Positions 5,105 to 37,467 of a stretch of DNA of 37,467 nucleotides are shown piece after piece. The stretch lies in IMG/VR virus record IMGVR_UViG_2563366946_000012, one strand, 5' to 3'. The stretch is from a virus. Lineage: Duplodnaviria; Heunggongvirae; Uroviricota; Caudoviricetes. The notes under the pieces were generated by a model, which saw only the letters and a list, made by a program, of their open reading frames with translations, ran no database searches and was not told where the DNA came from. Each line of letters opens with the position of its first letter. Position 1 is the first letter of the stretch. The position numbers and the translations under genes are program-made.

Positions 5105-5307
5105 GGGGCAATATCCTCTTCTGTACGGGCTTCTTCAGCCTCAATCACCGGGATCAGTAACAACAGCCCGGAGGGCAGCACCGGCGTGATGGCCACGTGC
5201 GGATTGGCGGCAATAATCCGGGGATAGCCCAGCGGGTCACCGTAGTACTGCCATGCCAGCGAATCCCAGCGCTCTCCGTCACGGGTAACATGTTCAAGAA
5301 ACATCAC
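5092..5307 (-). CDS. Tail protein X-like (small LysM-like tail protein)
   Basis: 71-aa ORF between the gpU-like and gpD-like genes; sequence VTRDGERWDSLAWQYYGDP…IIAANP resembles the gpX family. Confidence 0.55.
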   Translation of the reverse strand: MMFLEHVTRDGERWDSLAWQYYGDPLGYPRIIAANPHVAITPVLPSGLLLLIPVIEAEEARTEEDIAPWLR

Positions 5308-6188: not shown

Positions 6189-9139
6189 CAGCGGTACTCC
6201 TTACGTTGTTTCTGAGCCAGCAGACGCTCCAGCATTTTTTCCAGCTCATGCAGACTCATATTCAGGGCACCAGTCAGTCCTGCAGGCGCTGTGGTTTCCC
6301 TGCCATTGAGGAAAAACTGAGGATTAAAGCTGACCTGAATACCACCAGACGTTCCACCGCCGGTTGCAGCTGCACCACGGCCTGAATATCCGGCAGCCAG
6401 GATTTCAGACGAGGGGATACGGGGAACATCCGGTGTCATCTCATTTGCCAGACGTTGCCCTGGTAAAATCGATGCCCGGGTGGAGAGCGGAATAGCGGGC
6501 ATGGAAGACAAACTATTGATTACGGATCCGATCGCATTTTTAGCAGACGACATAAACCCGTTGATATCGGGCAACGGCATGCGGAAGTGAACATCTGAAG
6601 TGTTATCCCGTATTTCTGGCCCCTGAATGCTCACGGGCATTTTGGGGAGCAGTTCACTGGCCATTCGCTGACCGGCCAGAGCTGCAAGCGGAGTGCTCCG
6701 CTGCAGGCCAATGGCGGCCCCCTGCGCGATATTGTCACCAAAGCCCATAAACACGCGGCTCGGCGAATGAATGCCCAGCTTTTCGCTGAACCAGCCACTG
6801 ATGCTGTCGCCCATTCCGGTTACGCTGGTTTTGAGTGACTCCCATTTGTTTTTGATACCGTTAATCAGACCGTCGACAAGATGGCCACCGAAGTCGGTGA
6901 ACTTTGCCGGCAGCTCAACGCCGAGATATTTCAGCGCAGCTGCAAAGGCTTTATAGAGCAGACCTGCCGGCGACCAGTTAATCAGCAGCTTACCAGTTCC
7001 CACGATACCGCCGTTAAAGGCTTCCTGAATGTCAGCCCAGCGTTGTTTAAACCAGCTACTGATGCTGTCACCCATTCCGGTTACACTGGATTTGAGCGCC
7101 CCCCATTTGTTTTTGATACCGTTAATCAGACCGTCGATAAGATGGCCACCGAAGTCGGTGAACTTTGCCGGCAGAGCAACGCCGAAATATTTCAGCGCAG
7201 CCGCAAAGGCTTTATAGAGCAGGCCTGCCGGCGACCAGTTAATCAGCAACTTACCAATTCCCACAATGCCGCCGTTAAAGGCTTCCTGAATGTCAGCCCA
7301 GCGCTGTTTAAACCAGCCACTGACTGCCCCCCAGTTGCGGTAGATAAGGTAAGCTGCTGCCGCGACAGCGGTGATAACGAGACCGATGGGATTCATCATC
7401 AGCGCACGTCCAATCCAGAGAACAGCACGTCCGGCGAGCATAATTCCGCGAACCAGCCCCCCGGAGAGCACGCCACTCAGTGTTCTGGCTCCTCTGGCGA
7501 CGGCGCTAAATCCGGTCACCAGCCAGCGGAGCTTACCGCCTTGCCCCAGTGCGAGCGACAGACGAAGCCAGTTGGCCCGAAGTAAAACAGCATTTTTCCA
7601 GACACTTACAAAGGGGGAAATAAGGAGATTCAGCCCCAGTTTGAGACCAACAGTCGCTATCTTAATCGCAAGGAGCGCACTGATGAGCTTAAAAGCCCCA
7701 CTGACAAATTGCGGGTGAGTCGCTACCCAGTGTTTTGTCCCCTGAATGAGTGGGAGCAAGTCCTGAGTCAGAGAAATAAAAGATGGAGCTAATTGATCGC
7801 CCAGCGTAATTGCCAGATCGCGACTGCTGACCATAAGTGCTTTAGTGGCTTCAAGGGGAGATTTCAGCCGCTGATCATAAGCACTGGCAAGCAAATCGTT
7901 ATCCGCAGTCCTGAGAGCACCGGCGCGGATCTCGCGATATCTGTCCATGTTGGCCAGCATCGGGCGGATAAATGCCATGACCTGCATATCCGCGAACATA
8001 TCACCCAGACCAAAGTTTTTCGCCAGAGCCTGAAGTGCCTCATCTCTTGCCGTATCATTCTTTATTTTCATGGCGGATTTGAAGCCGGCCAGCGCTTCGG
8101 GGCTTTTGGCATTGAGGTAACGTTCTATAACACTCAACATCCCTTCAATCGGAGAGATCCCCGCAGCCTTATAACTCGCAATAGATCCCTGCAAATCAAT
8201 ACCCAGATCAGCAAACTGTTTCTGAGTATCGCGGGCAAAAATTTTGGTAAGAAAGTTTTTAAAATTATTGGCTGCCTCGTCGGTGGAACCTGCACCGATT
8301 TTTGCTATCTGGAGACTGGCCCCGATTTCAGCAACAGCCTCTTTTCCACTGGCAATACCCGCCATCATTGGGGCCAGGGACTGCATCCACTTGACCTGAT
8401 CCGGGATTTCAAATGACCCCTGGTCACCGGCATAAGCCATAATATTCTGAACGGCACCAAAATCTCTGGCCGCACCTTTCAGGGAGTTTTGCCAGACTGC
8501 GGCCACTTTTGCCCAGTCCTGAGCAGACGTGCGTGTTGCCGTTGCCGCGCGGGCAATATCCGGCATCAGAAAACCGATATCTGACACATTATCAATATTG
8601 TCGCTGATGAGTGAACCCACCGCCTCCTGCAGCTCATCCTGATACTGATTGTATTTAAGCGCCCAGCCTTTTATCTGTCCGGCAAGTGCATCCCGCGTTT
8701 TATTGTCATATTTTGCGGTGATCGACATATCAATCATTTTGTCCTGAAAAGACATGGACTGCTGAACGGCAGGGGAAACCGTATGATAAACAGTCTGTGC
8801 CATGCCATACGCTTCAATCCCCTGACCATACAGCGCCATGCGGTTAGCTTTCAGCGCATCACTGGTAGCGGATGCCGCTGACAGACGGCGCTGCTGGCGC
8901 ACAATTTGCTCCATGGTGCGGCTTACCCGCAGCAGCTCGCTGTTGAGATGCTGCATCCGGGAAGAACCCAGTTGACCATAACGTTCTGTTGCACGGGTTA
9001 AAGCGTTCTGACGTTCCTGCAGGCGGCGTGAGGTATCGCTCAGGGAATCAAGCGCACGGCGGGTACCGCTCATTGCAGAACGGAATGTGCTGCCAATCAT
9101 CCCGCCGATAACAACGCCGACTGAAAACTGTCCCGACAT
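6188..9139 (-). CDS. Tail tape measure protein
   Basis: 983-aa ORF, the longest in the tail module. Alpha-helical/coiled-coil N-terminus, hydrophobic central segments, internal repeats; lies downstream of the chaperone pair with a GGAGG RBS. Confidence 0.85.
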   Translation of the reverse strand: MSGQFSVGVVIGGMIGSTFRSAMSGTRRALDSLSDTSRRLQERQNALTRATERYGQLGSSRMQHLNSELLRVSRTMEQIVRQQRRLSAASATSDALKANRMALYGQGIEAYGMAQTVYHTVSPAVQQSMSFQDKMIDMSITAKYDNKTRDALAGQIKGWALKYNQYQDELQEAVGSLISDNIDNVSDIGFLMPDIARAATATRTSAQDWAKVAAVWQNSLKGAARDFGAVQNIMAYAGDQGSFEIPDQVKWMQSLAPMMAGIASGKEAVAEIGASLQIAKIGAGSTDEAANNFKNFLTKIFARDTQKQFADLGIDLQGSIASYKAAGISPIEGMLSVIERYLNAKSPEALAGFKSAMKIKNDTARDEALQALAKNFGLGDMFADMQVMAFIRPMLANMDRYREIRAGALRTADNDLLASAYDQRLKSPLEATKALMVSSRDLAITLGDQLAPSFISLTQDLLPLIQGTKHWVATHPQFVSGAFKLISALLAIKIATVGLKLGLNLLISPFVSVWKNAVLLRANWLRLSLALGQGGKLRWLVTGFSAVARGARTLSGVLSGGLVRGIMLAGRAVLWIGRALMMNPIGLVITAVAAAAYLIYRNWGAVSGWFKQRWADIQEAFNGGIVGIGKLLINWSPAGLLYKAFAAALKYFGVALPAKFTDFGGHLIDGLINGIKNKWGALKSSVTGMGDSISSWFKQRWADIQEAFNGGIVGTGKLLINWSPAGLLYKAFAAALKYLGVELPAKFTDFGGHLVDGLINGIKNKWESLKTSVTGMGDSISGWFSEKLGIHSPSRVFMGFGDNIAQGAAIGLQRSTPLAALAGQRMASELLPKMPVSIQGPEIRDNTSDVHFRMPLPDINGFMSSAKNAIGSVINSLSSMPAIPLSTRASILPGQRLANEMTPDVPRIPSSEILAAGYSGRGAAATGGGTSGGIQVSFNPQFFLNGRETTAPAGLTGALNMSLHELEKMLERLLAQKQRKEYR
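6770..7330. repeat. Tandem duplication of a 261-bp (87-aa) unit inside the tape measure gene (two full copies plus the start of a third)
   Basis: Units begin near 6789, 7050 and 7311; protein repeat SWFKQRWADIQEAFNGGIVG(I/T)GKLLINWSPAGLLYKAFAAALKY…GMGDSIS occurs twice in tandem. Confidence 0.85.
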
Positions 9140-9214
9140 AGTGGTTAACCTCCGGGGAAGGTGAAAAGACGTGAGGGGATAACGCAGAACAGCCGCTACT
9201 GGCGGCTGTCTGTA

Positions 9215-9472
9215 CTATGATTTGTCGCCGTACTCGCTTTTGATTTGCTCTTCAGCCTGCTCCAGCCACATCTCCAGATCGTCAGTATCGAGGGCATCAA
9301 TCTCCCCCGGCTGAAACCGGAACCATCTCGCCAGCAGCCCCTGCGCCTGCGTCAGCGCCCTGGTTGCTCTCACCCATCCCCGTGATGAGCTGAAATCGTT
9401 TCTGTAACTGCAGGTAATCAGCCAGATCCATATTGTCGAGATCTTCCGGGAGAAGACCAGTACTGCGGGCAA
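9215..9472 (-). CDS. Overlapping alternative-frame ORF, candidate frameshift extension of the tail chaperone (E'-like)
   Basis: 85-aa ORF in a different frame overlapping the 3' half of the chaperone and ending just upstream of the tape measure start; acidic protein-like C-terminal sequence (…FQPGEIDALDTDDLEMWLEQAEEQIKSEYGDKS). Confidence 0.4.
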   Translation of the reverse strand: MPAVLVFSRKISTIWIWLITCSYRNDFSSSRGWVRATRALTQAQGLLARWFRFQPGEIDALDTDDLEMWLEQAEEQIKSEYGDKS

Positions 9473-9632
9473 TCAGCGGTTCGTCCCAGTCTGCCGGGTT
9501 TTTGCTGATTTTGCGCACCTGCTTCAGGTCTTTTACCGTCAGGCGTTTCAGTTCAACCTGCTCAATTCTGGTGCCTGCAGCAGTGGTGAAGGGATAAGAC
9601 AATTTAAAAGTATCGGATGGGGTCTGTGACAT
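9297..9632 (-). CDS. Tail assembly chaperone (P2 gpE / Mu gp41-like)
   Basis: 111-aa ORF between tube and tape measure; contains …LLPEDLDNMDLADYLQLQKRF…, resembling gpE-type chaperones. Confidence 0.55.
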   Translation of the reverse strand: MSQTPSDTFKLSYPFTTAAGTRIEQVELKRLTVKDLKQVRKISKNPADWDEPLIARSTGLLPEDLDNMDLADYLQLQKRFQLITGMGESNQGADAGAGAAGEMVPVSAGGD

Positions 9633-9729
9633 GATTGTGCTCCTGTGTAAGTTCAGGGCAGTATGTCGGGAGAAGCGCGTGACGGATATTAAAGGAGATT
9701 AAGAAGAAGGGGCCGGAGCCCCTGTGATG

Positions 9730-10011
9730 TCAGCAAGTGCGAAACCCCTTGCAGTTACGCAGGAAAGCGATGAGAAGCGTCTTTCCCTCAGATTTGCCGG
9801 TGCCGGAGAACCAGTGGTCGGGAGGCTCCCATGCTTCAATCAAATCCGCCAGTTTGCGGGCCTTTGAACGTGTGCAGTCAATCGGGTCATTGGTTTTACG
9901 GGTATTAAAAAGGGTTTCCACCCCCGGAATATCAAGGAGGGTAAACCACGTACCATTTGACATGCCCAGTGCCGCACATCGTCCTCCTTTATCCGTCAGT
10001 TCAACACTCAC
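9730..10011 (-). CDS. Hypothetical small protein between tube and chaperone genes
   Basis: 93-aa ORF starting 3 nt after the tube gene stop; followed by a GC-rich hairpin near 9695-9715. No recognisable family. Confidence 0.3.
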   Translation of the reverse strand: MSVELTDKGGRCAALGMSNGTWFTLLDIPGVETLFNTRKTNDPIDCTRSKARKLADLIEAWEPPDHWFSGTGKSEGKTLLIAFLRNCKGFRTC

Positions 10012-10013
10012 CG

Positions 10014-10535
10014 TCAGCCCCCGATATTGATACGGTAGTCAGTCAGTTGATCAACACCGCCGACCCGGAAGATGTTGGCCAGATAGTCCAGTTGCAGCAG
10101 CTCTTCACCATCCAGTACCTGTCTGATATACGTGCAGGTGAAGCTACTGGAGAACTCGGCGTTCTCGTGCTGTTTGAACGTCCCCAGCGGGTTCTTCTTG
10201 AACATAATCGTCAGGAAGGTGACCAGCGGGATTTCGTCAATCAGCCCCTGCGAGCTGTAGCGCTGGACGCTGGAACGACACTGCAGTGCCAGCGACCTGT
10301 ACGGGTTCGCGGCTGACAGCATCGCATCGCGGTAAAAGCTGTTCCATTTGATTTCGCCTTCCAGTTTGTCAAAACCAGCCGGGAGTTCCACCTTACCCAC
10401 CATCCCCAGCGCCTTGTGTTCCTGCATAATCATGGAGACATCGGGGAGTTTAACTTCCTCAGCCCGTCCCAGCAGGTTAGTACCATCCAGATAGATGTTG
10501 GCATTCGTGATGCGGTTTATCTCAATCTTTGACAT
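10014..10535 (-). CDS. Tail tube protein
   Basis: 173-aa ORF immediately downstream of the sheath gene (overlapping stop/start); size and position typical of contractile-tail tube proteins. Confidence 0.75.
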   Translation of the reverse strand: MSKIEINRITNANIYLDGTNLLGRAEEVKLPDVSMIMQEHKALGMVGKVELPAGFDKLEGEIKWNSFYRDAMLSAANPYRSLALQCRSSVQRYSSQGLIDEIPLVTFLTIMFKKNPLGTFKQHENAEFSSSFTCTYIRQVLDGEELLQLDYLANIFRVGGVDQLTDYRINIGG

Positions 10536-11962
10536 CAGTTGCCCCCTTTCAGGGTTAACAGGTATTCCGAGGTGATCTCAGTCTCAAACGTCAGTCGCTC
10601 CAGCGGCGGCGGTGGCGTATATTTGTAACTCAGCAACAGGTGCCCGGCGGCCAGCTCCGTCTCCGGATTGCGGGCCGGATCAAACCAGCAACGGAAGCCC
10701 AGTACCGCACCATCACCAGTCATTTTGCGACCGTAGGCGTTGACCGACTCCGTCAGTGCATCAATCAGCGCCTGAGTAATCGGCATGTCGATGTACTGCT
10801 GGCTGAAATAACGAATGGACTCGTTGATCACATCACCGGTGCGGCGAACGTTCTCAAAGTTACGCATATGGGTGACCGTTGGCCATGCTGCCGTCCGGTT
10901 ACCCCACAGACGAAGGCCGCTGCCGTAACTGCTGAATACCGTGGTGATCCCCTGTTCGTTAAGCAGGTTCACCTCACTCTGCGGGTCATCAATCATCGCG
11001 GACAGCTGGCGCTCCACGCCGGTGATCCCCAGAATCTCCTGATTGGAGGATGACCACCAGTAGCCCTTGTCCAGATCGACTCTGGCACGCAGACCTGCTG
11101 CACGCTGGCTGAGCGGCTCCAGACGCTCTGTGTTTGTCACCGGGTCATATACCTTCACATGCGGATAGCACAGACGGACGCGGTCGGAGCTGGTATTGAA
11201 GTTGATGGTGCCTTCCGGGCCACGACCTGCCAGAGCCTGTGCAAAGGTGGTACCGACAGGCGCATCAATGTAGGTTACCGCGCCCAGCTTCTCTGCCATG
11301 GCGATAAGCTCAACTGCGACACTCTTCTGGGTGCAGAACACCGGCGCAATCAGAATTTTGGCGAAATAGCCGTACAGGTTGAAGCTGTCGTTAAGCAGCT
11401 TCATGCCGGTTCGGTTTCCGGCGCTGTTCACCCCGCCGATGATGTCCGCCGCAGTCACCTTCGACGGGTCCGCGTACTCATAGCTCACCTTCACGCTGCC
11501 ATCGGCCTCAATAGCCTTGCCCAGGTTCGTGAGCACACCCGCCTGCGCATCAACACGGTAGTCCGTGTTCGCCGTGTGGGTGGTGCTGCCTTCACTGTTT
11601 TTCACCACCACATTAGCGACAACCGGATGCGCCAGTCTGGCCTGCCCTGTCGATTTGTCAAAGGTAACCACCTCATCCTCGATCGCCGTTTTATGTTTCG
11701 CCGGGTCGAGGACGTTAATGACCAGAACGGTGCCTGCACCATGGTCATAAATCGCATCCAGCGCCTGCGGAATGGTAAAGCCGGTGAACTGGCTGCCAAA
11801 TGCCGCTGCGTCTTTCTCAGACAGGCACTGTACCAGCGTATTGACATCCCCCATCGGGGCGGTACCAATCAGGCCAATAACGGCAGATTTCACCGTTTTA
11901 ACCGGGCGGGCTCCGTTTTCCACCTCAATGGTTTCGACGCCATGCAGATAGTTAGCTGCCAT
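10535..11962 (-). CDS. Tail sheath protein
   Basis: 475-aa ORF preceding the tube gene; typical sheath size and order. Confidence 0.8.
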   Translation of the reverse strand: MAANYLHGVETIEVENGARPVKTVKSAVIGLIGTAPMGDVNTLVQCLSEKDAAAFGSQFTGFTIPQALDAIYDHGAGTVLVINVLDPAKHKTAIEDEVVTFDKSTGQARLAHPVVANVVVKNSEGSTTHTANTDYRVDAQAGVLTNLGKAIEADGSVKVSYEYADPSKVTAADIIGGVNSAGNRTGMKLLNDSFNLYGYFAKILIAPVFCTQKSVAVELIAMAEKLGAVTYIDAPVGTTFAQALAGRGPEGTINFNTSSDRVRLCYPHVKVYDPVTNTERLEPLSQRAAGLRARVDLDKGYWWSSSNQEILGITGVERQLSAMIDDPQSEVNLLNEQGITTVFSSYGSGLRLWGNRTAAWPTVTHMRNFENVRRTGDVINESIRYFSQQYIDMPITQALIDALTESVNAYGRKMTGDGAVLGFRCWFDPARNPETELAAGHLLLSYKYTPPPPLERLTFETEITSEYLLTLKGGN

Positions 11963-12206
11963 GGGAGTCCTCCGTTTTCACTTCGCTGTCACTGCTGCTT
12001 CTGCGCTTTGGTGACTGCACAGCCGGTGTGACGGCGGGTTTAGTCTCTTCAGATACCGGCGTCAGGTGCTTCAGCGCCACCAGTACCTTCACGTAGTCAT
12101 GCTCCTCCGGCAGGGAAACCGTCTTCCCCGGCCAGAGCAGGATTTCGGTTCCGTCCGACAGCGTGACGCCGCTGGCCGGGCCGGAATAGCGGTATTCTTT
12201 CATCAC
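11952..12206 (-). CDS. Hypothetical small virion-associated protein
   Basis: 84-aa ORF between the gp37-like gene and the sheath, overlapping both. Confidence 0.35.
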   Translation of the reverse strand: MMKEYRYSGPASGVTLSDGTEILLWPGKTVSLPEEHDYVKVLVALKHLTPVSEETKPAVTPAVQSPKRRSSSDSEVKTEDSHGS

Positions 12207-12667
12207 TCGCTTTCCTCATAGTTCACTTCGGTTAACAGCGGGCCGGACGGTAAATCGCTGTCTTCGATAAAGACGCTTTCAGTCGCGAAGTCGAGGGCGT
12301 ATTGCCACAGCCCCCTGACTTCACCGATAAACACCTCGCGGGTCAGCCAGATACGGCGGCGGCACCCGGGCGGGGTGTGGCCACCGAGAATGCGGCGGAC
12401 AGCATCCAGGACATTAATCGCCCCTTTTTTACCGTTGAGCTGGCGGAAGACCACCGTGACGCAGAGCTGGATAGTCTGAGACTGGATCACCGCACCGGTA
12501 TCATCCGGCCTGTCAAAGCGCGAACCGGCATAGCTCAACAGCAACGCGCCAACCGGATGGTTCAGGCGATATTCAGCCGGTTTCTCCGGGAAGTACTCCA
12601 CCTGCAGTTGCGGCAGCTTCTCGCGTAACCGGGCCAGTACCGCATCAAGGACGGGCAGAACGTTCAT
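12203..12667 (-). CDS. Mu gp37-like virion protein (head-tail joining/neck region)
   Basis: 154-aa ORF in the position of Mu K/gp37, between head and sheath genes. Confidence 0.45.
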   Translation of the reverse strand: MNVLPVLDAVLARLREKLPQLQVEYFPEKPAEYRLNHPVGALLLSYAGSRFDRPDDTGAVIQSQTIQLCVTVVFRQLNGKKGAINVLDAVRRILGGHTPPGCRRRIWLTREVFIGEVRGLWQYALDFATESVFIEDSDLPSGPLLTEVNYEESE

Positions 12668-13113
12668 CAGTATTTCTCCAGTAAACCGTCACGACCGCCG
12701 AAAGTGGCCGGGCGACTGCGTACACGAAACTCGCCAGGCTCAGGCACATCTTTCTGAGTGGACGGCAGCCCCAGCGTGAGCCTGTTATCACGTAACTCCC
12801 TGAGTTGCCGCAGCGCTTCTTTGTGGTCATCCTTCACCGTATCCGGGAGGTCACCTTCCGGGCGGCGGGCGTAGAGCCGGTAACGGACCAGCGTGATGGC
12901 AATGTCCCGCAGAACAGTCGGTATCTCTGCCAGTGGCAGGATATAGCGTCCGCGCAGATGGGCATCAATCAGCTCGTCGGCATAGCGGATACAGCTGTCC
13001 ACCACACGGGTATTCACTGTTGCAGGCGAGTCGAAGTCCATCTCTTCACTGGTGAGCTCGATAAGCGTCCGCTCCGGCACCTGCGCAAGCAAATCCTCCA
13101 GGGTGCAGTACAT
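12667..13113 (-). CDS. Mu gp36-like protein (DUF1320-type)
   Basis: Track ORF 12667..13275 has an implausible N-terminal extension; the internal ATG (MYCTLEDLLAQVPERT…) at about 13113 overlaps the upstream gene's stop, giving about 148 aa. Confidence 0.45.
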   Translation of the reverse strand: MYCTLEDLLAQVPERTLIELTSEEMDFDSPATVNTRVVDSCIRYADELIDAHLRGRYILPLAEIPTVLRDIAITLVRYRLYARRPEGDLPDTVKDDHKEALRQLRELRDNRLTLGLPSTQKDVPEPGEFRVRSRPATFGGRDGLLEKY

Positions 13114-13114
13114 G

Positions 13115-13453
13115 TCACACCCCGCGCAGGATACGAATGACGTCGCCTTCACCCCCGGCTTCATCAAGTGCAATACCACAGGATTTACCGTCGCCGGACT
13201 GCGGCACGGCTCTGGCCTGAGCATCTGACTGAACAGCCACACCACGGCTGACAGCGGCCCCGGCCTCGACAGCAATAATGCCCAGAACGCTCACCGGCGT
13301 GCTGTCGCCGGTAACAGCATCCACTTCGGCAACCCCGAGCGCTGCGGCACCGGCTTTACAGGGGGTATTATCTGCCCCGACAAAACGCTGCTGTGCCAGT
13401 GCTGCCCCTGCCGTTACGGTTGTGATCAGAATGACCTGCTGAGTGGTTCCCAT
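13115..13453 (-). CDS. Small Ala/Gly/Val-rich head-associated protein (possible decoration/cement protein)
   Basis: 112-aa ORF directly downstream of the major head gene; composition typical of small capsid accessory proteins. Confidence 0.35.
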   Translation of the reverse strand: MGTTQQVILITTVTAGAALAQQRFVGADNTPCKAGAAALGVAEVDAVTGDSTPVSVLGIIAVEAGAAVSRGVAVQSDAQARAVPQSGDGKSCGIALDEAGGEGDVIRILRGV

Positions 13454-13462
13454 AACGCCTCC

Positions 13463-14416
13463 TTATTTACTGATACCGGTAATGAGATACCCGGCATCGC
13501 CACCAACCACGGCGACTTTGTAGATATCGGTATAACGGCAGTACTTCACCTTGCCACCGGCTCCGTCGTATTTGTCGGCAACAGGCATCCCCTTACGACG
13601 CAGGGTGTAGCCGAAGGACGGCTCGTTCTCGTCCGCGCTGTCCGCCCCCGGCTGCGGTTTGCCGACATAGTGCAGCATCAGATTGTCTCCCCAGATATCC
13701 GCCGGCACGCTGTTCTTATCCATTGCCGCTTTCATGGACGGCAGGGAGACCGGGGCACCGATGACGATCTCTTCGATCTGAAAGAGGTCCTGCAGGATTT
13801 CTGTGGTGATGCGCTTGCGTTCGTTGGCTCCGATGGCGGCCTGAATCGCCGGGTGGAACTTCAGCAGCGCCATCACGCCGGCCCCCATGGTCATCAGGTT
13901 AGGACGCAGCCCCGTGGCCGTACGGACCGCTTCCATACCGGCTTCAATCACCCCGATGGGGTCCCCCTTACCACCGGCCCAGCGATCACTGGCTGTCAGT
14001 TTTTTGACGTGCCCGGTACGGTAGACCTTTTCATCCTGAGCCAGACGGGCAGCGATAAGTTCACGGCGCAGGTTCACGCCATTCGTGGCGCGACGGATGG
14101 CCTTGCTCTCTTCGTTAAACATGGACTCCGCCTGCTCGCGATAGTCCACCGGCGCAGCCAGATCGTGTTCACCCAGCACCAGGTCCAGCGTGCCTGTTTT
14201 TTCACGGACCAGAACATTGCTGTCCGCCCCGACGGCACGCTCGGTGTCATATTCCACAAAGGCGGTTTTCCCGAAGGTCGGTACACGCACGCCTTCCTTG
14301 TCCGTCAGCACGACGGGGAAAATACGTTCGCCGATGAATGCGGCATTTTTATAGCCACGGGCGATACTGGTCAGTACCGGATCAACGACACGTTTACCTT
14401 TTAAGTAATCAGACAT
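13463..14416 (-). CDS. Major head subunit (Mu gpT-like)
   Basis: 317-aa ORF following the protease/scaffold gene; size and position match Mu T. Confidence 0.75.
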   Translation of the reverse strand: MSDYLKGKRVVDPVLTSIARGYKNAAFIGERIFPVVLTDKEGVRVPTFGKTAFVEYDTERAVGADSNVLVREKTGTLDLVLGEHDLAAPVDYREQAESMFNEESKAIRRATNGVNLRRELIAARLAQDEKVYRTGHVKKLTASDRWAGGKGDPIGVIEAGMEAVRTATGLRPNLMTMGAGVMALLKFHPAIQAAIGANERKRITTEILQDLFQIEEIVIGAPVSLPSMKAAMDKNSVPADIWGDNLMLHYVGKPQPGADSADENEPSFGYTLRRKGMPVADKYDGAGGKVKYCRYTDIYKVAVVGGDAGYLITGISK

Positions 14417-14430
14417 GCTCTCTCCTTAAA

Positions 14431-15546
14431 TTACAGGCAGCGTGCGACAGCAGCCTCATAGCTGATGCCTTCTTTTTTGGACAGGGCCACTGCTTTCTGA
14501 TGCAGGGCCAGACGCTCAGGATCGGCTTCCGCAAACTCTGCCACATCCACCTTCACCGTGTCGCCGACACGCTCTTTTGTGGCCTGTTCGGCGAAATTCA
14601 TCACCGGCTCCCCGTCGGAGAGCAATGAACGAAAGGCGGTGGCCAGCGGTGTGCGGCTTTCCCCCTCAGCAAACTCCACCGGCTTGTCGCCACCGGCGAC
14701 GGCATCCAGCAGGGCAACCACCACGGAGGAGGCGCGGGGAGCCAGACGGCCCTCTGCGACCAGTTTTTCTGCAAAGGCCACATTGTCCTTATGCAGTTGC
14801 TCCTGTCTGACCTGTGCATCACGCGCATCGCGATCAGCAGCCTGCTGCTTCAGGCGGCGGTTCTCCTCCTGAAGGGCTTCAATCTCTTCTTTTGTCATCG
14901 ATGATTCCTCGTTACTTGCGGAAGACGGCCCCGGGCCTGTCTCACTGAATTGTGCACCTGCTGCATCCTGCGACAGTGTGTCGCGGTACGCCTCTTCGCG
15001 CAGACTGTTGAGCTGCCATTCCGGCAGGACTTTTTCTGCCTCGTCCAGACTGAAGCGGGCGATCAGAAAATCGCGCAGCTTTCCCCACAGGGAGGCATTC
15101 GTGATGGCCTGCCAGTCGGCGAACTCCACCACACCTTCTTCCTGCTCACTGAAGGACACCTGTTTCAGCCCCTTGACGGAAGGTGGCTGTGCCCCGAGAA
15201 AGCCCACATGGCGAAGGTAGAGCACGCCGGGCTTCGGATTGGACGGTGAATCCGGGAGGTAGAAAGAGGCGGACACTTTTTTGAATCGTCCGTCGGTGAC
15301 CATCTCAGCAAACTGCGGGTCCAGCTGGGCAGGCTCTGCCATCAGATCGACGCCGCTGAGCGACAGGGCTTTCACCCAGCCCCACGCCGGGTCTTCCGTT
15401 CTGGGATGACCAATCACGAGTGGTGCTTCATGGACGGACGGGTCATAGGCTTTCACGCAGGCGGCAAGATCGTCTGGCGTGAACGGCAGTTTTTTGCCGT
15501 GCATATCGGTATGAGTACCGGCTTTAAAAATGTGAATGGCTGACAT
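14431..15546 (-). CDS. Head maturation protease / scaffold (Mu gpI-like)
   Basis: 371-aa ORF with globular N-terminal half and Glu/Ala/Arg-rich coiled-coil C-terminal half (…KEEIEALQEENRRLKQQAADRDARD…), the Mu I/Z arrangement. Confidence 0.75.
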   Translation of the reverse strand: MSAIHIFKAGTHTDMHGKKLPFTPDDLAACVKAYDPSVHEAPLVIGHPRTEDPAWGWVKALSLSGVDLMAEPAQLDPQFAEMVTDGRFKKVSASFYLPDSPSNPKPGVLYLRHVGFLGAQPPSVKGLKQVSFSEQEEGVVEFADWQAITNASLWGKLRDFLIARFSLDEAEKVLPEWQLNSLREEAYRDTLSQDAAGAQFSETGPGPSSASNEESSMTKEEIEALQEENRRLKQQAADRDARDAQVRQEQLHKDNVAFAEKLVAEGRLAPRASSVVVALLDAVAGGDKPVEFAEGESRTPLATAFRSLLSDGEPVMNFAEQATKERVGDTVKVDVAEFAEADPERLALHQKAVALSKKEGISYEAAVARCL

Positions 15547-15760
15547 TTTGCTGTCCCGCGTTATGTTGTCGGAGACAGTTTGTGAGAAATGCAGGCCCGG
15601 CGATTTTAATCTGCTTTAGAAAACATCAGGGGAGAAGGACAGGGAAAGCAATGCGGTGAACCGGAGGCGGTTATAAAACAGAGGCTGTAAAGCCTTTATA
15701 AAGGTAATACAGCCCCTCATTCGCTGGCAATGATAAATCACCCGCCTGAAGAGAGAAAAC

Positions 15761-16219
15761 TCAGCGACGGGCCGCTGATTCAAGATGGCGGACAATGGTA
15801 TCGAGGATGGGGATTACCACTTCAGGCTGTAGTTCTCCATCCCCCGTCACCGGCAGGAACGGGCGGGCCGGAAGTTCAACAGACTCATTACGCCCCGTTT
15901 TACCCCCGAACTGGTGAATGGCACCGTAAACAACGTTGGTCCCCACAACAGCCTGCCGGTCGTCATGGTCGGTTGATACTGACCCCATCAGACGCCCGGT
16001 ATCCTGCAGTGTCTGCCCGTCACGTTCTTCCGCTGCCAGCGAGGGGATCCACCCCGGACGCCCCTCATCAAGAAAGTTAAACTGTGTTTCCGCCAGCAGG
16101 GTTCCGGCGATTTTGCGCATCGCGGGCTCCAGGTCTGTGGCAGCAAGATCCAGCGCACGGAGGCTCCGGCGCAGGGATTTATCGTTAATGGTGATACTGA
16201 CCAGGTTATCGGAAGCCAT
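15761..16219 (-). CDS. Virion morphogenesis protein (Mu gpG-like)
   Basis: 152-aa ORF between the F-like and I-like genes, the position of Mu G. Confidence 0.7.
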   Translation of the reverse strand: MASDNLVSITINDKSLRRSLRALDLAATDLEPAMRKIAGTLLAETQFNFLDEGRPGWIPSLAAEERDGQTLQDTGRLMGSVSTDHDDRQAVVGTNVVYGAIHQFGGKTGRNESVELPARPFLPVTGDGELQPEVVIPILDTIVRHLESAARR

Positions 16220-21941: not shown

Positions 21942-22659
21942 AACTGCTGCCTCCCCATGTGAGATATCGTGGTGCCAGTTCGCGCAGGATGCGCTGCGGA
22001 TAATGGCGGTTCTCCCGCCAGCTGGCCGCATTGCGTCCGGCATTCACCGTGGCGACATGTCCGAACCAGCGGGTGCTGTCCAGACCTTTCTGTGATGCAA
22101 GCCGCCTGTCCCGTTGTACCCAGCCCAGACCACCGTTATAGCCCGACAGTGTCATGGCCATACGCTCGCAGTCGTTGGCGGCGCTGACGCGCTGCCACAG
22201 CCAGCGGTCATAGCTGACCAGCGCCCGGATAGCCCATGCCGGATTAAACGGCTCACGACTGCTCAGCATCGGTATCAACTGGCTTATCCAGTCGGCAGTG
22301 GCAGGCATGAACTGCGCCAGTCCCTGAGCGCCAGCCGGCGAGACCGCATCAGGTCGCCAGCCGCTTTCCTGATGCAGTTGCGCGGCGAAATCGGCCACCG
22401 GCGCAGACAGTCCCCATTCAAGCCGGGCATTACGGATCACATCATCGCGATACTGCAGCGCAGCCTGCGGGGGCTGCGCTGCGCATGCCTGGCTGAAAAA
22501 GCCGCCACACCAGAGCAGCCAGACAATCACCAGGTTGCCAGCAAGCTGCCACCAGAAGCTGTATTTATCGTTACGTGGTTCTCCGTGTCTGATGGCGGTT
22601 ACGCCCAGACCAAAGGCGAACAGAATAATGAGGGTGATTTGAGGCCAGTTCATGGTCAC
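21925..22659 (-). CDS. Endolysin, soluble lytic transglycosylase (SLT) domain with N-terminal signal-anchor (SAR-type)
   Basis: Contains …QLHQESGWRPDAVSPAGAQGLAQFMP…, the catalytic-Glu block of SLT domains; N-terminal hydrophobic segment WPQITLIILFAFGLGVTAI. Confidence 0.8.
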   Translation of the reverse strand: MTMNWPQITLIILFAFGLGVTAIRHGEPRNDKYSFWWQLAGNLVIVWLLWCGGFFSQACAAQPPQAALQYRDDVIRNARLEWGLSAPVADFAAQLHQESGWRPDAVSPAGAQGLAQFMPATADWISQLIPMLSSREPFNPAWAIRALVSYDRWLWQRVSAANDCERMAMTLSGYNGGLGWVQRDRRLASQKGLDSTRWFGHVATVNAGRNAASWRENRHYPQRILRELAPRYLTWGGSSCVASG

Positions 22660-23039
22660 AGTCCTGTTGCCACAGCCAGACAGACCGCTGCAACAATCAG
22701 TGCACGGCGGATTAACGCAGCAGAAAATACAAGGTGAAGGCCGGTCTGCACAGGGAAACGCCCTTCAGCCATCAGCCTGTCTTCATGTTTCAGGTACTGA
22801 CCGGGACGGGCTTTGGGGAAGAGCGAACGGTCAAGCCAGTAACCCAGCACTGCTGCCAGCGTGATAAGTGCCAGCTTGTAGATCACAACAGGCAACTGCT
22901 GTGGCGAGACCAGAGCGATGATGCCCAGCAACAGCACTGAGGTCAGCAGCCAGCCGCTGAGGCGAGGTTTTTTAACAGGGGGAATGAATTTTTTCAGGTT
23001 TTTCATGTGTGTCTCCTCGTTTGGTGGAGACAGCATCAC
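22656..23039 (-). CDS. Putative holin/pinholin (first gene of the late operon)
   Basis: 127-aa ORF (GTG start in track; internal ATG giving MKNLKKF… near 23006) with 2-3 predicted TM helices, overlapping the endolysin start. Confidence 0.5.
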   Translation of the reverse strand: MMLSPPNEETHMKNLKKFIPPVKKPRLSGWLLTSVLLLGIIALVSPQQLPVVIYKLALITLAAVLGYWLDRSLFPKARPGQYLKHEDRLMAEGRFPVQTGLHLVFSAALIRRALIVAAVCLAVATGL

Positions 23040-23120
23040 AAATGTGGCGGGATACGGATTTTAAACAGCGTTAATAGTGAAGATGTAAACGTGCACTGCA
23101 TGATGACTTTGAAAGAACGA

Positions 23121-23148
23121 CCAGCCCGGTACCCGAACACCGGGCTGG
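23121..23148. promoter_or_regulatory. Perfect 10-bp inverted repeat with 8-nt loop upstream of the late operon (activator site or minus-strand terminator/insulator)
   Basis: ccagcccggt-acccgaac-accgggctgg read directly from the sequence, about 85-130 bp upstream of the holin start. Confidence 0.4.
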
Positions 23149-23194
23149 CCATCGCCCCACAGGAATGCGCTGTGAGCCGACCGAGGTTCAGTCA

Positions 23195-23234
23195 GTCTCG
23201 CGAGACCAGACTAGCCTGCCATATTTTTTATAAT
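23195..23234 (+). promoter_or_regulatory. Methyltransferase promoter region: 12-bp palindrome GTCTCGCGAGAC and consensus -10 hexamer TATAAT
   Basis: Palindrome at about 23195-23206; TATAAT at about 23229-23234, about 20 bp upstream of the ATG at 23254. Confidence 0.45.
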
Positions 23235-23253
23235 TGTAAAAGGCTTACAGATT

Positions 23254-24024
23254 ATGAAAATGCAGACATTACCCATCGTTCCATGGATTGGTGGCAAACG
23301 CCGCCTTGCAAAACACATCCTGCCGTTGTTTCCGGCGCATGAATGTTATGTGGAGCCGTTTTGTGGGGCAGCAGCGCTCTATTTTCTTAAGGTACCCGGC
23401 AAGATCGAAGTCATTAATGATATCAACGGTGAACTGGTGAACCTGTATCGGGTGGTAAAACATCATCTGGAAGAATTTGTACGCCAGTTCAAATGGGCGC
23501 TGGTCAGCCGGCAGATCTACAAATGGCTGCAGATCACCCCGGAAGAAACACTGACGGATATCCAGCGTGCAGCACGGTTCTACTACCTTCAGAAGCAGGC
23601 GTTTGGAGGCAAGGTGGCGGAGCACAGCTTTGGTACCTCCACCATATCCCCGCCACGCTTCAACCTGCTGCGTATTGAAGAAGAACTGTCAGCGGCACAC
23701 CTGCGGCTTTCCAGAACGGTCATAGAACACATGGACTGGCAACAATGCATAGAACGATATGATCGCCCGCATACGTTGTTCTACTGTGACCCTCCATACT
23801 GGGGAACGGAAGGTTATGGTGTGGAGTTCGGACTAGAAAATTATGATCATATGGCAGATTTAGCACGCAGGATCAAAGGGAAGATGATTATATCGGTGAA
23901 CGATATCCCGGAAATGCGGCAGGCATTCAACGGTCTAAATATTCAGTCGGTTGATATCAGCTACAACCTCAAGATCACTGGCAAATCCAGTCGCAAGAAG
24001 GAACTCATTATCCTCAACTTTTGA
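23254..24024 (+). CDS. Orphan DNA N6-adenine methyltransferase (Dam-like, alpha class)
   Basis: N-terminal AdoMet-binding block (VEPFCGAAALYF), C-terminal catalytic DPPY (FYCDPPYWGTEGYG), about 256 aa; no adjacent restriction endonuclease gene. Confidence 0.85.
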   Translation: MKMQTLPIVPWIGGKRRLAKHILPLFPAHECYVEPFCGAAALYFLKVPGKIEVINDINGELVNLYRVVKHHLEEFVRQFKWALVSRQIYKWLQITPEETLTDIQRAARFYYLQKQAFGGKVAEHSFGTSTISPPRFNLLRIEEELSAAHLRLSRTVIEHMDWQQCIERYDRPHTLFYCDPPYWGTEGYGVEFGLENYDHMADLARRIKGKMIISVNDIPEMRQAFNGLNIQSVDISYNLKITGKSSRKKELIILNF

Positions 24025-25219
24025 CCGAATAGTAAGACTTCATGCAGTGAATCAAGTACTGCATGAAGTCAAGGGCTGGTTTTGTGTACCAAAAATAAAC
24101 AGTGATAGCGGTAATAATTCCCATAACTAGAACACCACGTATAATCCAGAACGTACGTTTCTGCGTGTCTAGTCGCGCAGAAATACTGCTAAATACACCA
24201 GCCACGTCATCTTTAATGAAGGAATATTCCTTATTAATCTGTTTTTCTTTGTATTCAATTTCTTCGCCTAAGGCCTTTATAGATTGCATCTGGTTCGAAA
24301 GTGCCAGCCAGATTAACGTTGCAGCAAAAATGCATCCCAGAAGAATTATTGTGTTTGTTATCCCTTGGCCTGACCATTTCGTAGCCACTTTGAATTGGGT
24401 AGCTACGATAACAGAGGCAACAGGAATGCCAAGTATATGGTTCTGGATATCTGAAAACGCTTTGTGGATTTTACCCATTTCTTCGACTTTTGCAGCACGC
24501 AGTTGATCCATTACTTTGTCATAAGAGAATCCAGAAGAGTAGATACGATACCCTTTCAGAAACTTTTCATGCAGACGCTGAATATTGTCCAGTAAATAAG
24601 CGAATACTAGAGGTGAATCAATTCCATCACTAACTGCTTGGATACTTTCAATCAGAATATCTAGCTTCTGATCCTTATGGGTATCATCATTGAAACAAGC
24701 TATAAGGTTATCAAGATACTCTCTTTGCAAATTTTGTACATTTTCTGCAGCGAAGTGCGGTAATAGCTTGATAACTTCTTTTTTCAGAAAAACTAACTGA
24801 CAAGTTGAGTTATCAAAGTAGGCCGCGGCCTCTTTTAGCAGGTTAACGAACTCGAGAATCTTCCGGTAGTTGCTGATGAAAACGGGGATATCTTCATCAT
24901 CATTACGAAACTTTGTTTCTAGGATGAAGTAATTAGCTGGCTCAAGGCACTGATGCTTTGGAGCATTTAGCAATTTTTCATGGGTGGAAAACACAAGTCC
25001 CAGTCCACTCCGTGGTGACGTCACACGTAGGATGATCGTGTTACCTGGAGCGATAGTGCCTGTATCAATAGAAAGACCATATTCACGAGGATCATCAAGC
25101 AAAGTATCAACCAGATCACAATCGGACTGATCTAAGAGCAACAGCGAACCGACACGAAACCCCTCTTGGAATTCCATACGACGATACAGAGCTGTCAGCA
25201 TCTCAAATGAAATCGCCAC
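24014..25219 (-). CDS. Cassette gene 2: protein with large cytoplasmic N-terminal domain and two C-terminal transmembrane helices (candidate effector)
   Basis: 401-aa ORF; hydrophobic helices near residues 295-320 (ITNTIILLGCIFAATLIWLALS) and 360-385 (FWIIRGVLVMGIITAITVYFWY). Start is 2 nt after the stop of the upstream gene; AT-rich by eye. Confidence 0.6.
   Translation of the reverse strand: MAISFEMLTALYRRMEFQEGFRVGSLLLLDQSDCDLVDTLLDDPREYGLSIDTGTIAPGNTIILRVTSPRSGLGLVFSTHEKLLNAPKHQCLEPANYFILETKFRNDDEDIPVFISNYRKILEFVNLLKEAAAYFDNSTCQLVFLKKEVIKLLPHFAAENVQNLQREYLDNLIACFNDDTHKDQKLDILIESIQAVSDGIDSPLVFAYLLDNIQRLHEKFLKGYRIYSSGFSYDKVMDQLRAAKVEEMGKIHKAFSDIQNHILGIPVASVIVATQFKVATKWSGQGITNTIILLGCIFAATLIWLALSNQMQSIKALGEEIEYKEKQINKEYSFIKDDVAGVFSSISARLDTQKRTFWIIRGVLVMGIITAITVYFWYTKPALDFMQYLIHCMKSYYSVKS
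24036..24087 (+). terminator. Rho-independent-type terminator hairpin downstream of the methyltransferase
   Basis: Perfect 13-bp inverted repeat gacttcatgcagt / actgcatgaagtc with 9-nt loop (about 24036-24070), followed by GGTTTTGTGT; overlaps the last codons of the convergent minus-strand membrane-protein gene. Confidence 0.5.
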
Positions 25220-25221
25220 GA

Positions 25222-26229
25222 TTAAACCTCAGTCATCCACATTTCCCTAAATTCTTCAGGTACATTACGTAGGGTGATAATATTTGTTTCCGGATCATAA
25301 TCAATATAGCCTTCAGTTTTCCCTTCCCGGTCAAACTTAAGTTCCCAATATTTAGACTTGCCTTTAAAAGATACCAGAGCCCGAATGACTCGACCATCAG
25401 GAACGAAGCCATCCGATAACTCCAACTCTTCAGCAGCAAGTTTACCAGATAACTCCTCGGGAGCCTGGGGCCAAATGGCATTAACAAGGGTTTCAAGACT
25501 AAGTGGTTCACCAGCCTTACTTAGTGCATGTAAGTGTTCAAACGCACTCTTAAGAAATGCATCTTTTTCAGCGCCGTCAAGTCCTTTCTCTGCCGCAAAT
25601 GCTTTTAAAACGTCACGTAACTTTTCAGACTCTCGTTTGGCGATTAAGACATCATTACAGCCGAGGAACTGTTTAAAATAGTTTGAAACATTACCTTGCC
25701 CCTTAAGAAAACTGATATAGCGCTCTGCGCCACTTTCCCACGCGGTTAAGTCAATGCGCCCAGCCATACGCAGCTTAGCAATATCAAGATAGGTACTATC
25801 TTGGATGTTAAAATCATCTGTGACAGTGGACCCAATGGTAGCGCTTACAATAGCTATCAACAGGTGTTCATTGTGTCCTATCACGATATTTGCAAAAAGA
25901 ACATAACCACCAGTAGCCATGTTTTCTCGCTGAGAACGTTCCGTCAGGTGATGCATCATTCGGCAGGAACTTTGGTAGAAATCATCAACACCTTCGAGAA
26001 AGTCCCCAGCCATTCGTTCCATAGGATAGTTATCCGTATCGCCTTCAAAATAGCCATAACCTTTACCTGTGCGTCCTGCATATTTTGCACAAATATCGTT
26101 TATAAGGCGCTGGGAGGCTTCAGTAACTAGACCTTCTTCAGGACTCAATCTCTCAGAAGCGTCTCCATTTTGTTGTTTGTCTAAAATGTGAACTACAACG
26201 TGTTTAACTTCAATGGTCTGCTCAGACAT
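25222..26229 (-). CDS. Cassette gene 1: YejK/NdpA-like (NA37 family) nucleoid-associated protein homolog
   Basis: 335-aa ORF with blocks recalled from E. coli YejK (…GGYVLFANIV…HLLIAIVS…YLDIAKLRMAGRIDLTAWESGAERYISFLKG…FKQFLG…). Good RBS (AAGGTGGA) before the ATG; begins 70 bp downstream of the repressor stop on the same strand. Confidence 0.55.
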   Translation of the reverse strand: MSEQTIEVKHVVVHILDKQQNGDASERLSPEEGLVTEASQRLINDICAKYAGRTGKGYGYFEGDTDNYPMERMAGDFLEGVDDFYQSSCRMMHHLTERSQRENMATGGYVLFANIVIGHNEHLLIAIVSATIGSTVTDDFNIQDSTYLDIAKLRMAGRIDLTAWESGAERYISFLKGQGNVSNYFKQFLGCNDVLIAKRESEKLRDVLKAFAAEKGLDGAEKDAFLKSAFEHLHALSKAGEPLSLETLVNAIWPQAPEELSGKLAAEELELSDGFVPDGRVIRALVSFKGKSKYWELKFDREGKTEGYIDYDPETNIITLRNVPEEFREMWMTEV

Positions 26230-26299: not shown

Positions 26300-26707
26300 T
26301 TAACCCACATTTTTTAACCGCTCAATCGTTGCGGATAATTCCTTCAGTTGTTTTTCCATCTCAATCACACGCTGTTTTTCTTCAGCGCCTCGCATGAGAT
26401 CTCGCCGAACCTCAGGATCTAACTGGTTTAGAAGTTCAAGCATTTTAAGGTCTGACGGGCTGAATTGATGTTGTGTTGGTACAGCAACAATTTCTTTAGA
26501 TGGAATATGTTCTTTACCGGTAAGTAGCCAATCGATCGATACACCCAAATGGGTGCTTAGCGCAACAAGAGCCTCTGCGTTTGGTTCTCTCTCTCCACGC
26601 AAATAGTTTTGAAGTGAGCGATATGGAATTTTTGATAAGTCAGATAATGCCTTTATTGTCATGCCATTAGCATCCATCACTTCACGCAATCTCTCTTTTG
26701 TACTCAT
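26300..26707 (-). CDS. Prophage repressor, XRE-type helix-turn-helix
   Basis: From the internal ATG (MSTKERLREVMDANGMTIKALSDLSKIPYRSLQNYLRGEREPNAEALVALSTHLGVSIDWLLTG…) an HTH-type DNA-binding domain plus C-terminal coiled coil; divergent from the early operon. The track N-terminal extension (TTG start at 26803) is implausible. Confidence 0.7.
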   Translation of the reverse strand: MSTKERLREVMDANGMTIKALSDLSKIPYRSLQNYLRGEREPNAEALVALSTHLGVSIDWLLTGKEHIPSKEIVAVPTQHQFSPSDLKMLELLNQLDPEVRRDLMRGAEEKQRVIEMEKQLKELSATIERLKNVG

Positions 26708-34015: not shown

Positions 34016-34457
34016 ACAACGTCTTATCCAGCTCATTCATATTGCCCGTAATGAACTGGGTATGGATGAAGACACCTACCGCCAGATGTTACAGGGGCTG
34101 ACCGGTAAAGCCTCAACCAAAGGAATGGATACCACACAACTAAACTGCGTGCTGGAATCCATGAAAAGGAAAGGCTTTCGCGTTAAGCCTGCCAGAAAAG
34201 CCAGCTCCGGTTTACCGCTGGATAACCATCCGCAGTCCAGGAAAATCCGTGCGCTATGGCTTGAAATGGCTGCTGCCGGCATTGTTCGTGACCGTTCAGA
34301 AAATGCATTAGCGCGGTGGATCAAGCGGGAAACGGGCATCAGCGCCCTGCGCTGGCTCAATACTGAACAGGCAAGCAGTGTTATTGAGAAACTGAAGAAG
34401 TGGCAGCACAGAGCTGCGGGAGTAAAACATGAGCGACCTGAATCAGTTTCGAAGTAA
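34005..34457 (+). CDS. gemA: GemA-like regulatory protein (Mu gp16 family)
   Basis: MMTKQRLIQLIHIARNELGMDEDTYRQMLQGLTGKASTKGMDTTQLNCVLESMKRKGF… resembles GemA; ATG preceded by AAAGGAG. Confidence 0.65.
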   Translation: MMTKQRLIQLIHIARNELGMDEDTYRQMLQGLTGKASTKGMDTTQLNCVLESMKRKGFRVKPARKASSGLPLDNHPQSRKIRALWLEMAAAGIVRDRSENALARWIKRETGISALRWLNTEQASSVIEKLKKWQHRAAGVKHERPESVSK

Positions 34458-34818
34458 AGGGCCGGAACTCTTGGTGGAGCTGGCACAGCATACCTCTGAG
34501 ACCGTTCGCGAGATTATTGATATTGAGCCCGCAATTGCCGACCAGATTGGTCAGGCCGTCGCGAACCGCATGATGCAGGTCTGGGGCGGGCAAAACGTTT
34601 ATTTCCCGATGGGCATGGTATGGAAGGTCAGTCAGCGCGACCGGGAAATCTTCAGGGAGTTTAACGGACGTAACCACCATGAACTGGCCCGCAAATTTGG
34701 TGTTTCGCTTCAGTGGGTCTACAGCGTGGTTAAGCGGGTAAGAAAAGAAGAACTGGATCGGATGCAGGGCAAGCTATTTGCTGATGAACCCGATGTAGAT
34801 ACGGAGAAAAAAGAGTAA
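34429..34818 (+). CDS. mor: Mor-family transcriptional activator (middle operon regulator)
   Basis: 129 aa; …QVWGGQNVYFPMG…RDREIFREFNGRNHHELARKFGVSLQWVYSVVKRVRKE… matches the Mor/C-family C-terminal HTH pattern; last gene before the prophage end. Confidence 0.75.
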   Translation: MSDLNQFRSKGPELLVELAQHTSETVREIIDIEPAIADQIGQAVANRMMQVWGGQNVYFPMGMVWKVSQRDREIFREFNGRNHHELARKFGVSLQWVYSVVKRVRKEELDRMQGKLFADEPDVDTEKKE

Positions 34819-34847
34819 TATCTGCAATCAGGCTGGAGCGAGTTCTG

Positions 34848-37467
<2,620 letters not shown>

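Follow-up and report, generated by a model that had tools for sequence, protein, structure and literature searches.

Introduction

In phage Mu the mom gene follows com, and its product, Mom, makes N6-carbamoylmethyl-adenine and is not a SAM-dependent methyltransferase. The modified base was named N6-(1-acetamido)-adenine in the work of Drozdz et al. (PMC3299994), where it is also reported that Pseudomonas phage B3 carries a methyltransferase, ORF48, in place of Mom. The activity of ORF48 was never demonstrated, and this protein was not found among the relatives of the methyltransferase Hia5 (Drozdz et al., 2012; PMC3299994). Another described enzyme is M.EcoMIV (WP_000783854.1, EC958_1101), encoded in prophage Phi2 of the E. 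coli ST131 strain EC958. Its transcription in the EC958 lysogen was significantly lower than that of dam and no motif was assignable to it (PMC4659465); moreover, no recognition site was known for any M.EcoMIV homologue with more than 65% identity (Forde et al., 2015; PMC4659465).

The present analysis concerns a stretch of viral DNA of 37,467 nucleotides (IMG/VR record IMGVR_UViG_2563366946_000012), hereafter called the window. The original prediction had proposed, at positions 23254-24024, an orphan Dam-like adenine methyltransferase located in a variable accessory region, transcribed from its own promoter and insulated by a strong hairpin terminator. This gene is one allele of M.EcoMIV, as listed in REBASE, and falls within the family of phage B3 ORF48. 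It is a prophage orphan methyltransferase of an ordinary kind that had already been annotated; the interest lies in the specificity of a very widespread methyltransferase family and in the opposite-strand RNA that travels with it.

Results

The gene codes for an intact orphan methyltransferase

The gene (23254..24024, plus strand) codes for an orphan alpha-class (D12, Dam-fold) DNA amino-methyltransferase of 256 amino acids. In a Pfam profile search the protein matched PF02086, the D12-class N6-adenine methyltransferase family, with 98.4 bits (cut-off 22). The Dam-family model TIGR00571 gave 116.9 bits, which passes the cut-off of 114.85 by 2 bits, and the PADLOC Type II methyltransferase profile gave 382 bits. 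The protein is 89% identical to M.EcoMIV over its full length and 66% identical to phage B3 ORF48 (E 4e-131). The sequence contains the motifs WIGGKRR (residues 11-17), EPFCGAAALY (motif I, residues 34-43) and DPPY (residues 179-182). Since motif I precedes DPPY, the order is that of the alpha class, and the protein has the Dam-type three-dimensional fold. In an alignment of 65 relatives, 35-64% identical, GGK, motif I and DPPY are invariant; no loss of catalytic residues was found, and the gene is real and intact, as originally predicted. The protein is predicted to carry out SAM-dependent methyl transfer to DNA. The gene is under strong purifying selection, with pN/pS values of 0.10-0.18 with respect to three related alleles and of 0.03-0.18 across all allele pairs.

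Profile searches detected no nuclease domain in any neighbour gene of the window, nor at the homologous loci of EC958, NCTC 13148, KP12 and PhiKM. The methyltransferase is therefore an orphan, in agreement with what had been proposed. Membership of a Type II restriction-modification system was rejected, because a cognate endonuclease gene is not adjacent.

The gene is a mosaic, as observed when it was compared with the alleles L008, L005 and L001. Over codons 1-190 it differs little from the ST131 allele (pS 0.22); codons 191-256 have a pS of 0.81 with respect to the same allele and are nearer to that of NCTC 13148/KP12. Of the 637 E. coli genomes with the transposase, 621 have it at 95% identity or more, and in most carriers the methyltransferase region is 80-90% identical; uniformity of the former and divergence of the latter indicate that the methyltransferase region is a recombination hotspot. 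The representative library also contained giant proteins of 1056-2505 amino acids (P0123, P0135, P0147 and P0236) with two to four tandem methyltransferase domains; in some of these proteins there is, in addition, an XkdF-type phage protease domain or else ligase and metallo-beta-lactamase domains. These giants look like multi-specificity phage counter-defence proteins, and the existence of such fused tandem members, some with the XkdF protease domain, means that a counter-defence function also fits the family.

Prophage context and distribution

The sequence of the window is that of a BcepMu-like transposable E. coli prophage, and strain TUM13754 is 100% identical to it over this stretch. Tail, head and lysis genes occupy the minus strand and end at the holin gene (22656..23006, minus strand), with which the lysis/late operon begins; next comes the methyltransferase gene, on the plus strand. 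Past it, again on the minus strand, are found a two-gene cargo cassette (24014..26229), coding for a 401-aa membrane protein and an NA37/YejK-like protein, and the HTH repressor of the prophage (26300..26707), whose operon heads towards the methyltransferase gene. Position and orientation are those originally described, with the late/lysis operon on one side and the convergent cassette on the other. The early genes, on the plus strand, code for an IclR-like HTH protein, a DUF3102 protein, an rve transposase, an ExeA-type ATPase, Gam, GemA and Mor (34429..34818), a Mor-family late transcription activator and candidate activator of the late genes. The presence in the window of transposase, ExeA-type ATPase, Gam, GemA, Mor and Mu-type late genes places the methyltransferase within a transposable prophage. 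One end of the prophage appears to lie just past the Mor gene, within 34819-37467, where an 839-aa minus-strand ORF (DUF4092) extends to the final base of the window; this ORF resembles a host gene, and its start is maybe beyond the window. The left edge of the window is still within tail genes, and the other prophage end is outside it.

Among 5426 complete E. coli genomes, the transposase was found in 637, a methyltransferase-like sequence in 556 and the cassette in 19. Roughly 87% of the genomes with this prophage family (556 vs. 637) therefore have the methyltransferase. Across the compared prophages, extra genes have been gained or lost on either side of it, and the corresponding region of BcepMu has no methyltransferase gene. 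These counts, together with the variable flanking genes, indicate that the methyltransferase is a conserved fixture of the enterobacterial lineage inside a cargo hotspot; the originally proposed location in a variable accessory region is correct for the cargo region and its flanks, but not for the gene itself. A species-level scan with one genome per species gave at least 583 matching stretches encoding a relative. Among the best 80 of these, the Enterobacterales include Mixta, Erwinia, Photorhabdus, Xenorhabdus, Serratia, Citrobacter and Brenneria, and nearly all of these Enterobacterales loci have a BcepMu-like context, the exception being Pantoea stewartii, in which no lysis genes were detected upstream. 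The gene is therefore present in about one tenth of the complete E. coli genomes, pandemic ST131 clone included, and in hundreds of other species.

The recognition hairpin differs from that of Dam

The protein is 26% identical to E. coli Dam and reaches 69.2 bits on the Dam equivalog model NF008152, whose cut-off is 441. We compared the positions K9, Y119, L122, R124, N126, P134 and Y138 of E. coli Dam, which we take to be those that read GATC; the list, N126 aside, reportedly goes back to the work of Horton et al. in 2006. In the HMMER alignment K9, L122, R124, N126 and P134 correspond to P10, K120, A122, H and S132, and the aromatic positions alone are kept, Y119 as F117 and Y138 as F136. 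In a MAFFT alignment the recognition hairpin contains a gap of about 7 residues. Dam and DpnM have a common hairpin motif, NGLxRxN...FNVPxGRY, which T4 Dam and M.EcoRV also possess; in the window protein FGGKVAEHSFGTSTISPPRF stands in its place. Across the subfamily the hairpin tip is diverse, and the scaffold FGG ... FG is kept. With respect to E. coli Dam, T4 Dam and DpnM (17-28% identity), the window protein has a different and probably shorter hairpin that lacks the GATC contact residues. On the basis of identity, equivalog score and missing contact residues, assignment as Dam proper, a GATC orthologue, was rejected. The term "Dam-like" is accordingly appropriate for the fold and misleading as regards a GATC enzyme.

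M.CbeI, an alpha-class N4-cytosine methyltransferase of GGCC with a solved structure, is as near to the window protein as Dam is and has DPPY at the same residue numbers. The fold therefore does not firmly indicate which sequence is recognised, and allows some slight doubt about the target base. Nevertheless, methylation of cytosine at N4 instead of adenine at N6 seems to us very improbable, considering that the identity to M.CbeI is just 25%, that most characterised D12 members are adenine enzymes and that DPPY is the typical adenine motif.

The protein might still be a phage Dam isozyme that acts on GATC, like T4 Dam and P1 Dam, and boosts the GATC methylation of fast-replicating phage DNA. 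The benefit would be protection from MboI/DpnII-type restriction and from MutH nicking, or a role in packaging or gene control. Both the Dam fold and the narrowly passed TIGR00571 cut-off agree with this explanation. Lysogens that carry the gene show no extra motif, as expected of a GATC enzyme in a dam+ host; this absence fits a GATC specificity masked by the host Dam just as well as it fits the other explanations. GATC is also under-represented in the window (114 sites observed and 183 expected from a second-order model, ratio 0.62), and seven sites lie inside the 771-bp gene; these counts, however, are uninformative about the target. What makes a GATC isozyme unlikely is the low identity to Dam, the 69 bits obtained against an equivalog cut-off of 441, the replacement of the hairpin motif by FGGKVAEHSFGTSTISPPRF with loss of K9, L122, R124, N126 and P134, the high variability of the hairpin tip in the subfamily, and the fact that M.CbeI is equally close. 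The literature on the CJIE1 dam-like gene and on the Chania, Shewanella and Salmonella methylomes contained no determined specificity applicable to the window protein.

Many relatives are encoded directly behind com

A Com ORF (PF10122, 59 bits) ends at the methyltransferase start in 20 or more of some 59 loci from beta- and gammaproteobacteria, taken from the best 80 of at least 583; these com-linked loci are found among Mu-type baseplate J, Gp48, I-protease and capsid genes. Close homologues behind com, in Mu-like prophages and in phage B3, are 66-76% identical to the window protein. Their occurrence in many Mu-like prophages indicates that the family is the modification gene of many such prophages, and the position of com directly before the homologues in at least 20 Mu-like prophages and in B3 argues for a late, Mom-like anti-restriction role. 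Among the roles considered in the original prediction, protection from restriction is therefore the best supported, given that these homologues stand directly behind com where Mu has com-mom. Com-type control in the relatives also bears on the GATC isozyme discussed above: it suggests that a mistimed product is harmful, whereas GATC methylation is not.

The site of the com-methyltransferase module varies (loci L028-L089, for example L037 and L046, and L092): it was found after baseplate/Gp48, after the major capsid gene and, in B3, in the tail operon. From these differing prophage positions it follows that the module and the upstream RNA element described below travel as one unit.

No Com-like ORF was present in the window or in the 19 Enterobacterales loci checked, and a search of the methyltransferase leader for a remnant com ORF gave none. 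As the window protein belongs to the family and com is absent, the window represents a com-less variant, for which the analogy with Mom rests on the relatives.

Promoter, leader and neighbouring cassette

The presumed promoter of the original prediction is a TATAAT hexamer (23229..23234, plus strand) without a -35 element. It overlaps a minus-strand promoter-like match, TTTTCA-16-TACAAT (23260..23233), and it was not reported in a promoter scan of the window. The relatives have AATAAT, ATTGAT, GCTAAT, CTCTAT and other hexamers at this position. Lacking a -35 element and conservation in the relatives, an autonomous sigma-70 promoter is doubtful. A complementary pair, AGCCT ... AAAGGCT (23213..23246, plus strand), is conserved, flanks the -10 region and overlaps the Shine-Dalgarno sequence AAGG (23241-23244). 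This pair could mask the ribosome-binding site, but it varies too little, and masking is therefore unproven. Between the hairpin upstream of the gene and the holin start, a weak promoter-like sequence, TTTACA ... TTTAAA/TAAAAT (23040-23110, minus strand), may represent an activator-dependent lysis/late promoter; no motif common to this region and the other late intergenic regions was found.

Downstream of the gene, a perfect 13-bp hairpin (24036..24070, plus strand) begins 12 nt after the stop codon. It falls within the last 19 codons of the convergent cassette gene, which the methyltransferase gene overlaps by 11 bp (24014-24024), and it is kept in Brenneria with one compensatory change. It is probably the 3' end or terminator of the methyltransferase transcript. 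Of the insulating terminator originally proposed, the strong hairpin was confirmed, but it is located inside a coding end and has no adjacent U-tract.

Both cassette proteins gave weak matches, far below the curated cut-offs, to known defence models: DS1_2 and KwaA for the 401-aa membrane protein and DS1_1 for the NA37/YejK-like nucleoid-associated protein. The cassette is possibly a distant variant of a two-gene anti-phage system. A three-gene defence system formed by methyltransferase and cassette was ruled out by co-occurrence (556 vs. 19 genomes), and the cassette is not functionally tied to the methyltransferase.

The perfect TATAAT may be a promoter gained by the window allele, which may then be expressed in the lysogen. 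According to a host-directed explanation, the enzyme would act in the lysogen on the host: it might regulate epigenetically, serve as a "vaccine" against restriction-modification systems that enter the cell, or mark self DNA as the partner of the cassette. Besides the perfect -10 hexamer, this would account for the nearly matching E. coli counts of the cassette (19 genomes) and of alleles with 99% identity or more to that of the window (18 genomes), and for the arrangement of methyltransferase plus cassette side by side also in Mixta tenebrionis and a Brenneria species. However, about 97% of the E. coli methyltransferase carriers have no cassette, and the cassette, which has no nuclease domain, resembles a two-gene system whose models include no methyltransferase. 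Moreover, the repressor-cassette operon converges on the methyltransferase gene, which favours silencing, and M.EcoMIV, the nearest of the alleles that have been studied, showed poor transcription in the lysogen and yielded no motif (PMC4659465). A host-directed role thus appears quite improbable.

A structured RNA is conserved on the opposite strand

Directly upstream of the methyltransferase start codon, the minus strand contains a structured RNA element (23104..23232; covariance model R1) with an inner four-pair helix around two hairpins, plus a 5' hairpin. A GC-rich terminal hairpin, CCAGCCCGGT / ACCGGGCTGG, followed by UCGUUCUUUC (23121..23148, minus strand), looks like an intrinsic terminator in Enterobacterales; in GC-rich relatives the tail of the element is pyrimidine-rich, not U-rich, and pairs into an enclosing helix. 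The core of helix 4 is CACAG-N7-CTGTG (23158..23174, minus strand), and its flanking extension pairs by G-U on the minus strand only. The perfect 12-bp palindrome GTCTCGCGAGAC (23195..23206) is unique in the window, and its dyad symmetry is kept through symmetric changes in other genera (GTCATCGATGAC, GTTCTCGAGAAC). Its centre is at about -41 from the transcription start implied by the TATAAT, and it forms the 5' hairpin of the RNA element or else serves as a protein-binding site. The hypothesis that GTCTCGCGAGAC and CACAG-N7-CTGTG are shared late-promoter (Mor) sites was discarded, as no comparable copies precede the other late operons.

The roughly 150 bp from the upstream hairpin to the start codon are 87-93% identical among alleles whose genes show pS values of 0.2-0.55, so that this region is better conserved than the synonymous sites of the gene. 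When 18 Enterobacterales sequences were folded with RNAalifold, -42.7 kcal/mol was obtained for the minus strand and -24.5 kcal/mol for the plus strand. The covariance model R1, built on the minus-strand alignment, detects the element in 55 loci, corresponding to 54 contigs of Gamma- and Betaproteobacteria and to phage B3, always directly 5' of com at the com-carrying loci and of the methyltransferase gene at the others. The window element scores 134 bits, its sequence being part of the seed; independent matches come from 37 loci outside the seed, including B3 (L092 1851 to 1722, E 2e-8). No match to the element was found in Rfam 15 at E up to 1.

In the 55 sequences 92.6% of the cells are paired, 29 of the 32 pairs change on both sides and the covariation score is 0.619, whereas shuffles reach 0.227 and slid controls no more than 0.117, in an alignment that was fitted to the covariance model itself. 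Helix 4 is 93.7% paired on the minus strand vs. 73.6% on the plus strand, with 123 vs. 6 G-U pairs, and helix 5 is 93.9% vs. 84.7% paired. The structure of the element is thus selected on the strand opposite the methyltransferase gene. We also considered that the element might belong to a BcepMu-type backbone independently of the methyltransferase, which was rejected because it is absent from BcepMu 1-16000, from the other B3 regions and from the part of SuMu that was searched.

No clear sigma-70 promoter for the opposite-strand RNA was identified in the window. The element is possibly the end of a leftward transcript from a divergent promoter, and a possible precedent for such an upstream opposite-strand transcript is the Mu mom promoter, at which Sun and Hattman reportedly described bidirectional transcription in 1998. 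Another possibility is that it works as a cis-antisense regulator of the methyltransferase leader. In the window prophage it might also be the stop for the repressor-cassette operon, whose transcripts would run antisense through the methyltransferase gene towards the lysis genes.

The conserved structure, the strand bias and the strict linkage to the methyltransferase family in 55 loci are compatible with the idea of a widespread two-part module, made of the methyltransferase and a divergent or antisense RNA of about 130 nt. The RNA would silence a potentially harmful enzyme of relaxed or novel specificity until late lytic growth, and those enterobacterial BcepMu-like phages that lack com would depend on it as their principal switch. 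We put this forward tentatively, as a proposal that is in its entirety rather doubtful. The element itself, apparently undescribed, may be a new phage regulatory RNA family and represents a concrete, testable candidate.

Discussion

The explanation that we prefer, and consider slightly more probable than its opposite, is that the window protein is an active orphan Dam-fold enzyme of the B3-ORF48/M.EcoMIV subfamily, which acts late, gives phage DNA a Mom-like protection and does not recognise GATC by the known reading mechanism. In such a scheme, Mu-like and BcepMu-like transposable phages would carry this subfamily in place of the Mom of Mu. The methyltransferase would be nearly silent in the lysogen and switched on in lytic growth, and phage DNA methylated before packaging would survive restriction in the next host. 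In the enterobacterial lineage the translational activator Com is absent and the conserved upstream RNA module is kept, whose opposite-strand RNA may take part in keeping the methyltransferase off or in timing its expression. If a broad protection of the Mom or Hia5 type holds true, it would help to explain the wide host spread of these transposable prophages and could add a useful enzyme for chromatin-footprinting methods.

Comparison with known systems

The closest system is that of M.EcoMIV, which is likewise found in a BcepMu-like prophage, in the slot flanked by holin and repressor; RNA element and leader upstream of it are the same as in the window. It differs in the C-terminal third, which is that of another allele, and in having AATAAT where the window has TATAAT. 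Moreover, in EC958 three extra genes lie between methyltransferase and holin, and the downstream cassette is absent.

Phage B3 is also transposable, shares the layout of the early genes and has the opposite-strand RNA element upstream of the module. There, however, the com homologue ORF47 directly precedes and overlaps ORF48, and the module is inside the tail operon, whereas in the window com is missing and the gene is located between the lysis and immunity regions.

As regards Mu com-mom, the relatives of the window protein occupy the place of mom directly 3' of com and presumably provide broad protection from restriction, but Mom is unrelated to the methyltransferase in sequence and chemistry. 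The region upstream of the gene in the window has no GATC sites through which a Dam/OxyR control could act.

A relationship with M.EcoGII was rejected, since that enzyme is of the beta class. Membership of the Hia5 type was also rejected: SuMu gp53, which was chosen as a proxy of the Hia5 family for its position behind com and its DPPY near residue 190, gave a best BLASTP E value of 0.057 with the window methyltransferase, and the match between PF02086 and the SuMu gp53 family is a bare one (23 bits). Hia5, Hin1523 and Nma1821 are nonetheless similar in kind, being non-specific orphan adenine methyltransferases of the Dam fold that replace Mom behind com in FluMu-type prophages (PMC3299994). 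They can be regarded, by analogy, as a precedent for relaxed specificity in the niche of Mom, and it is possible that the window enzyme, though outside their family, resembles Hia5 in its mode of action and methylates adenine almost independently of sequence.
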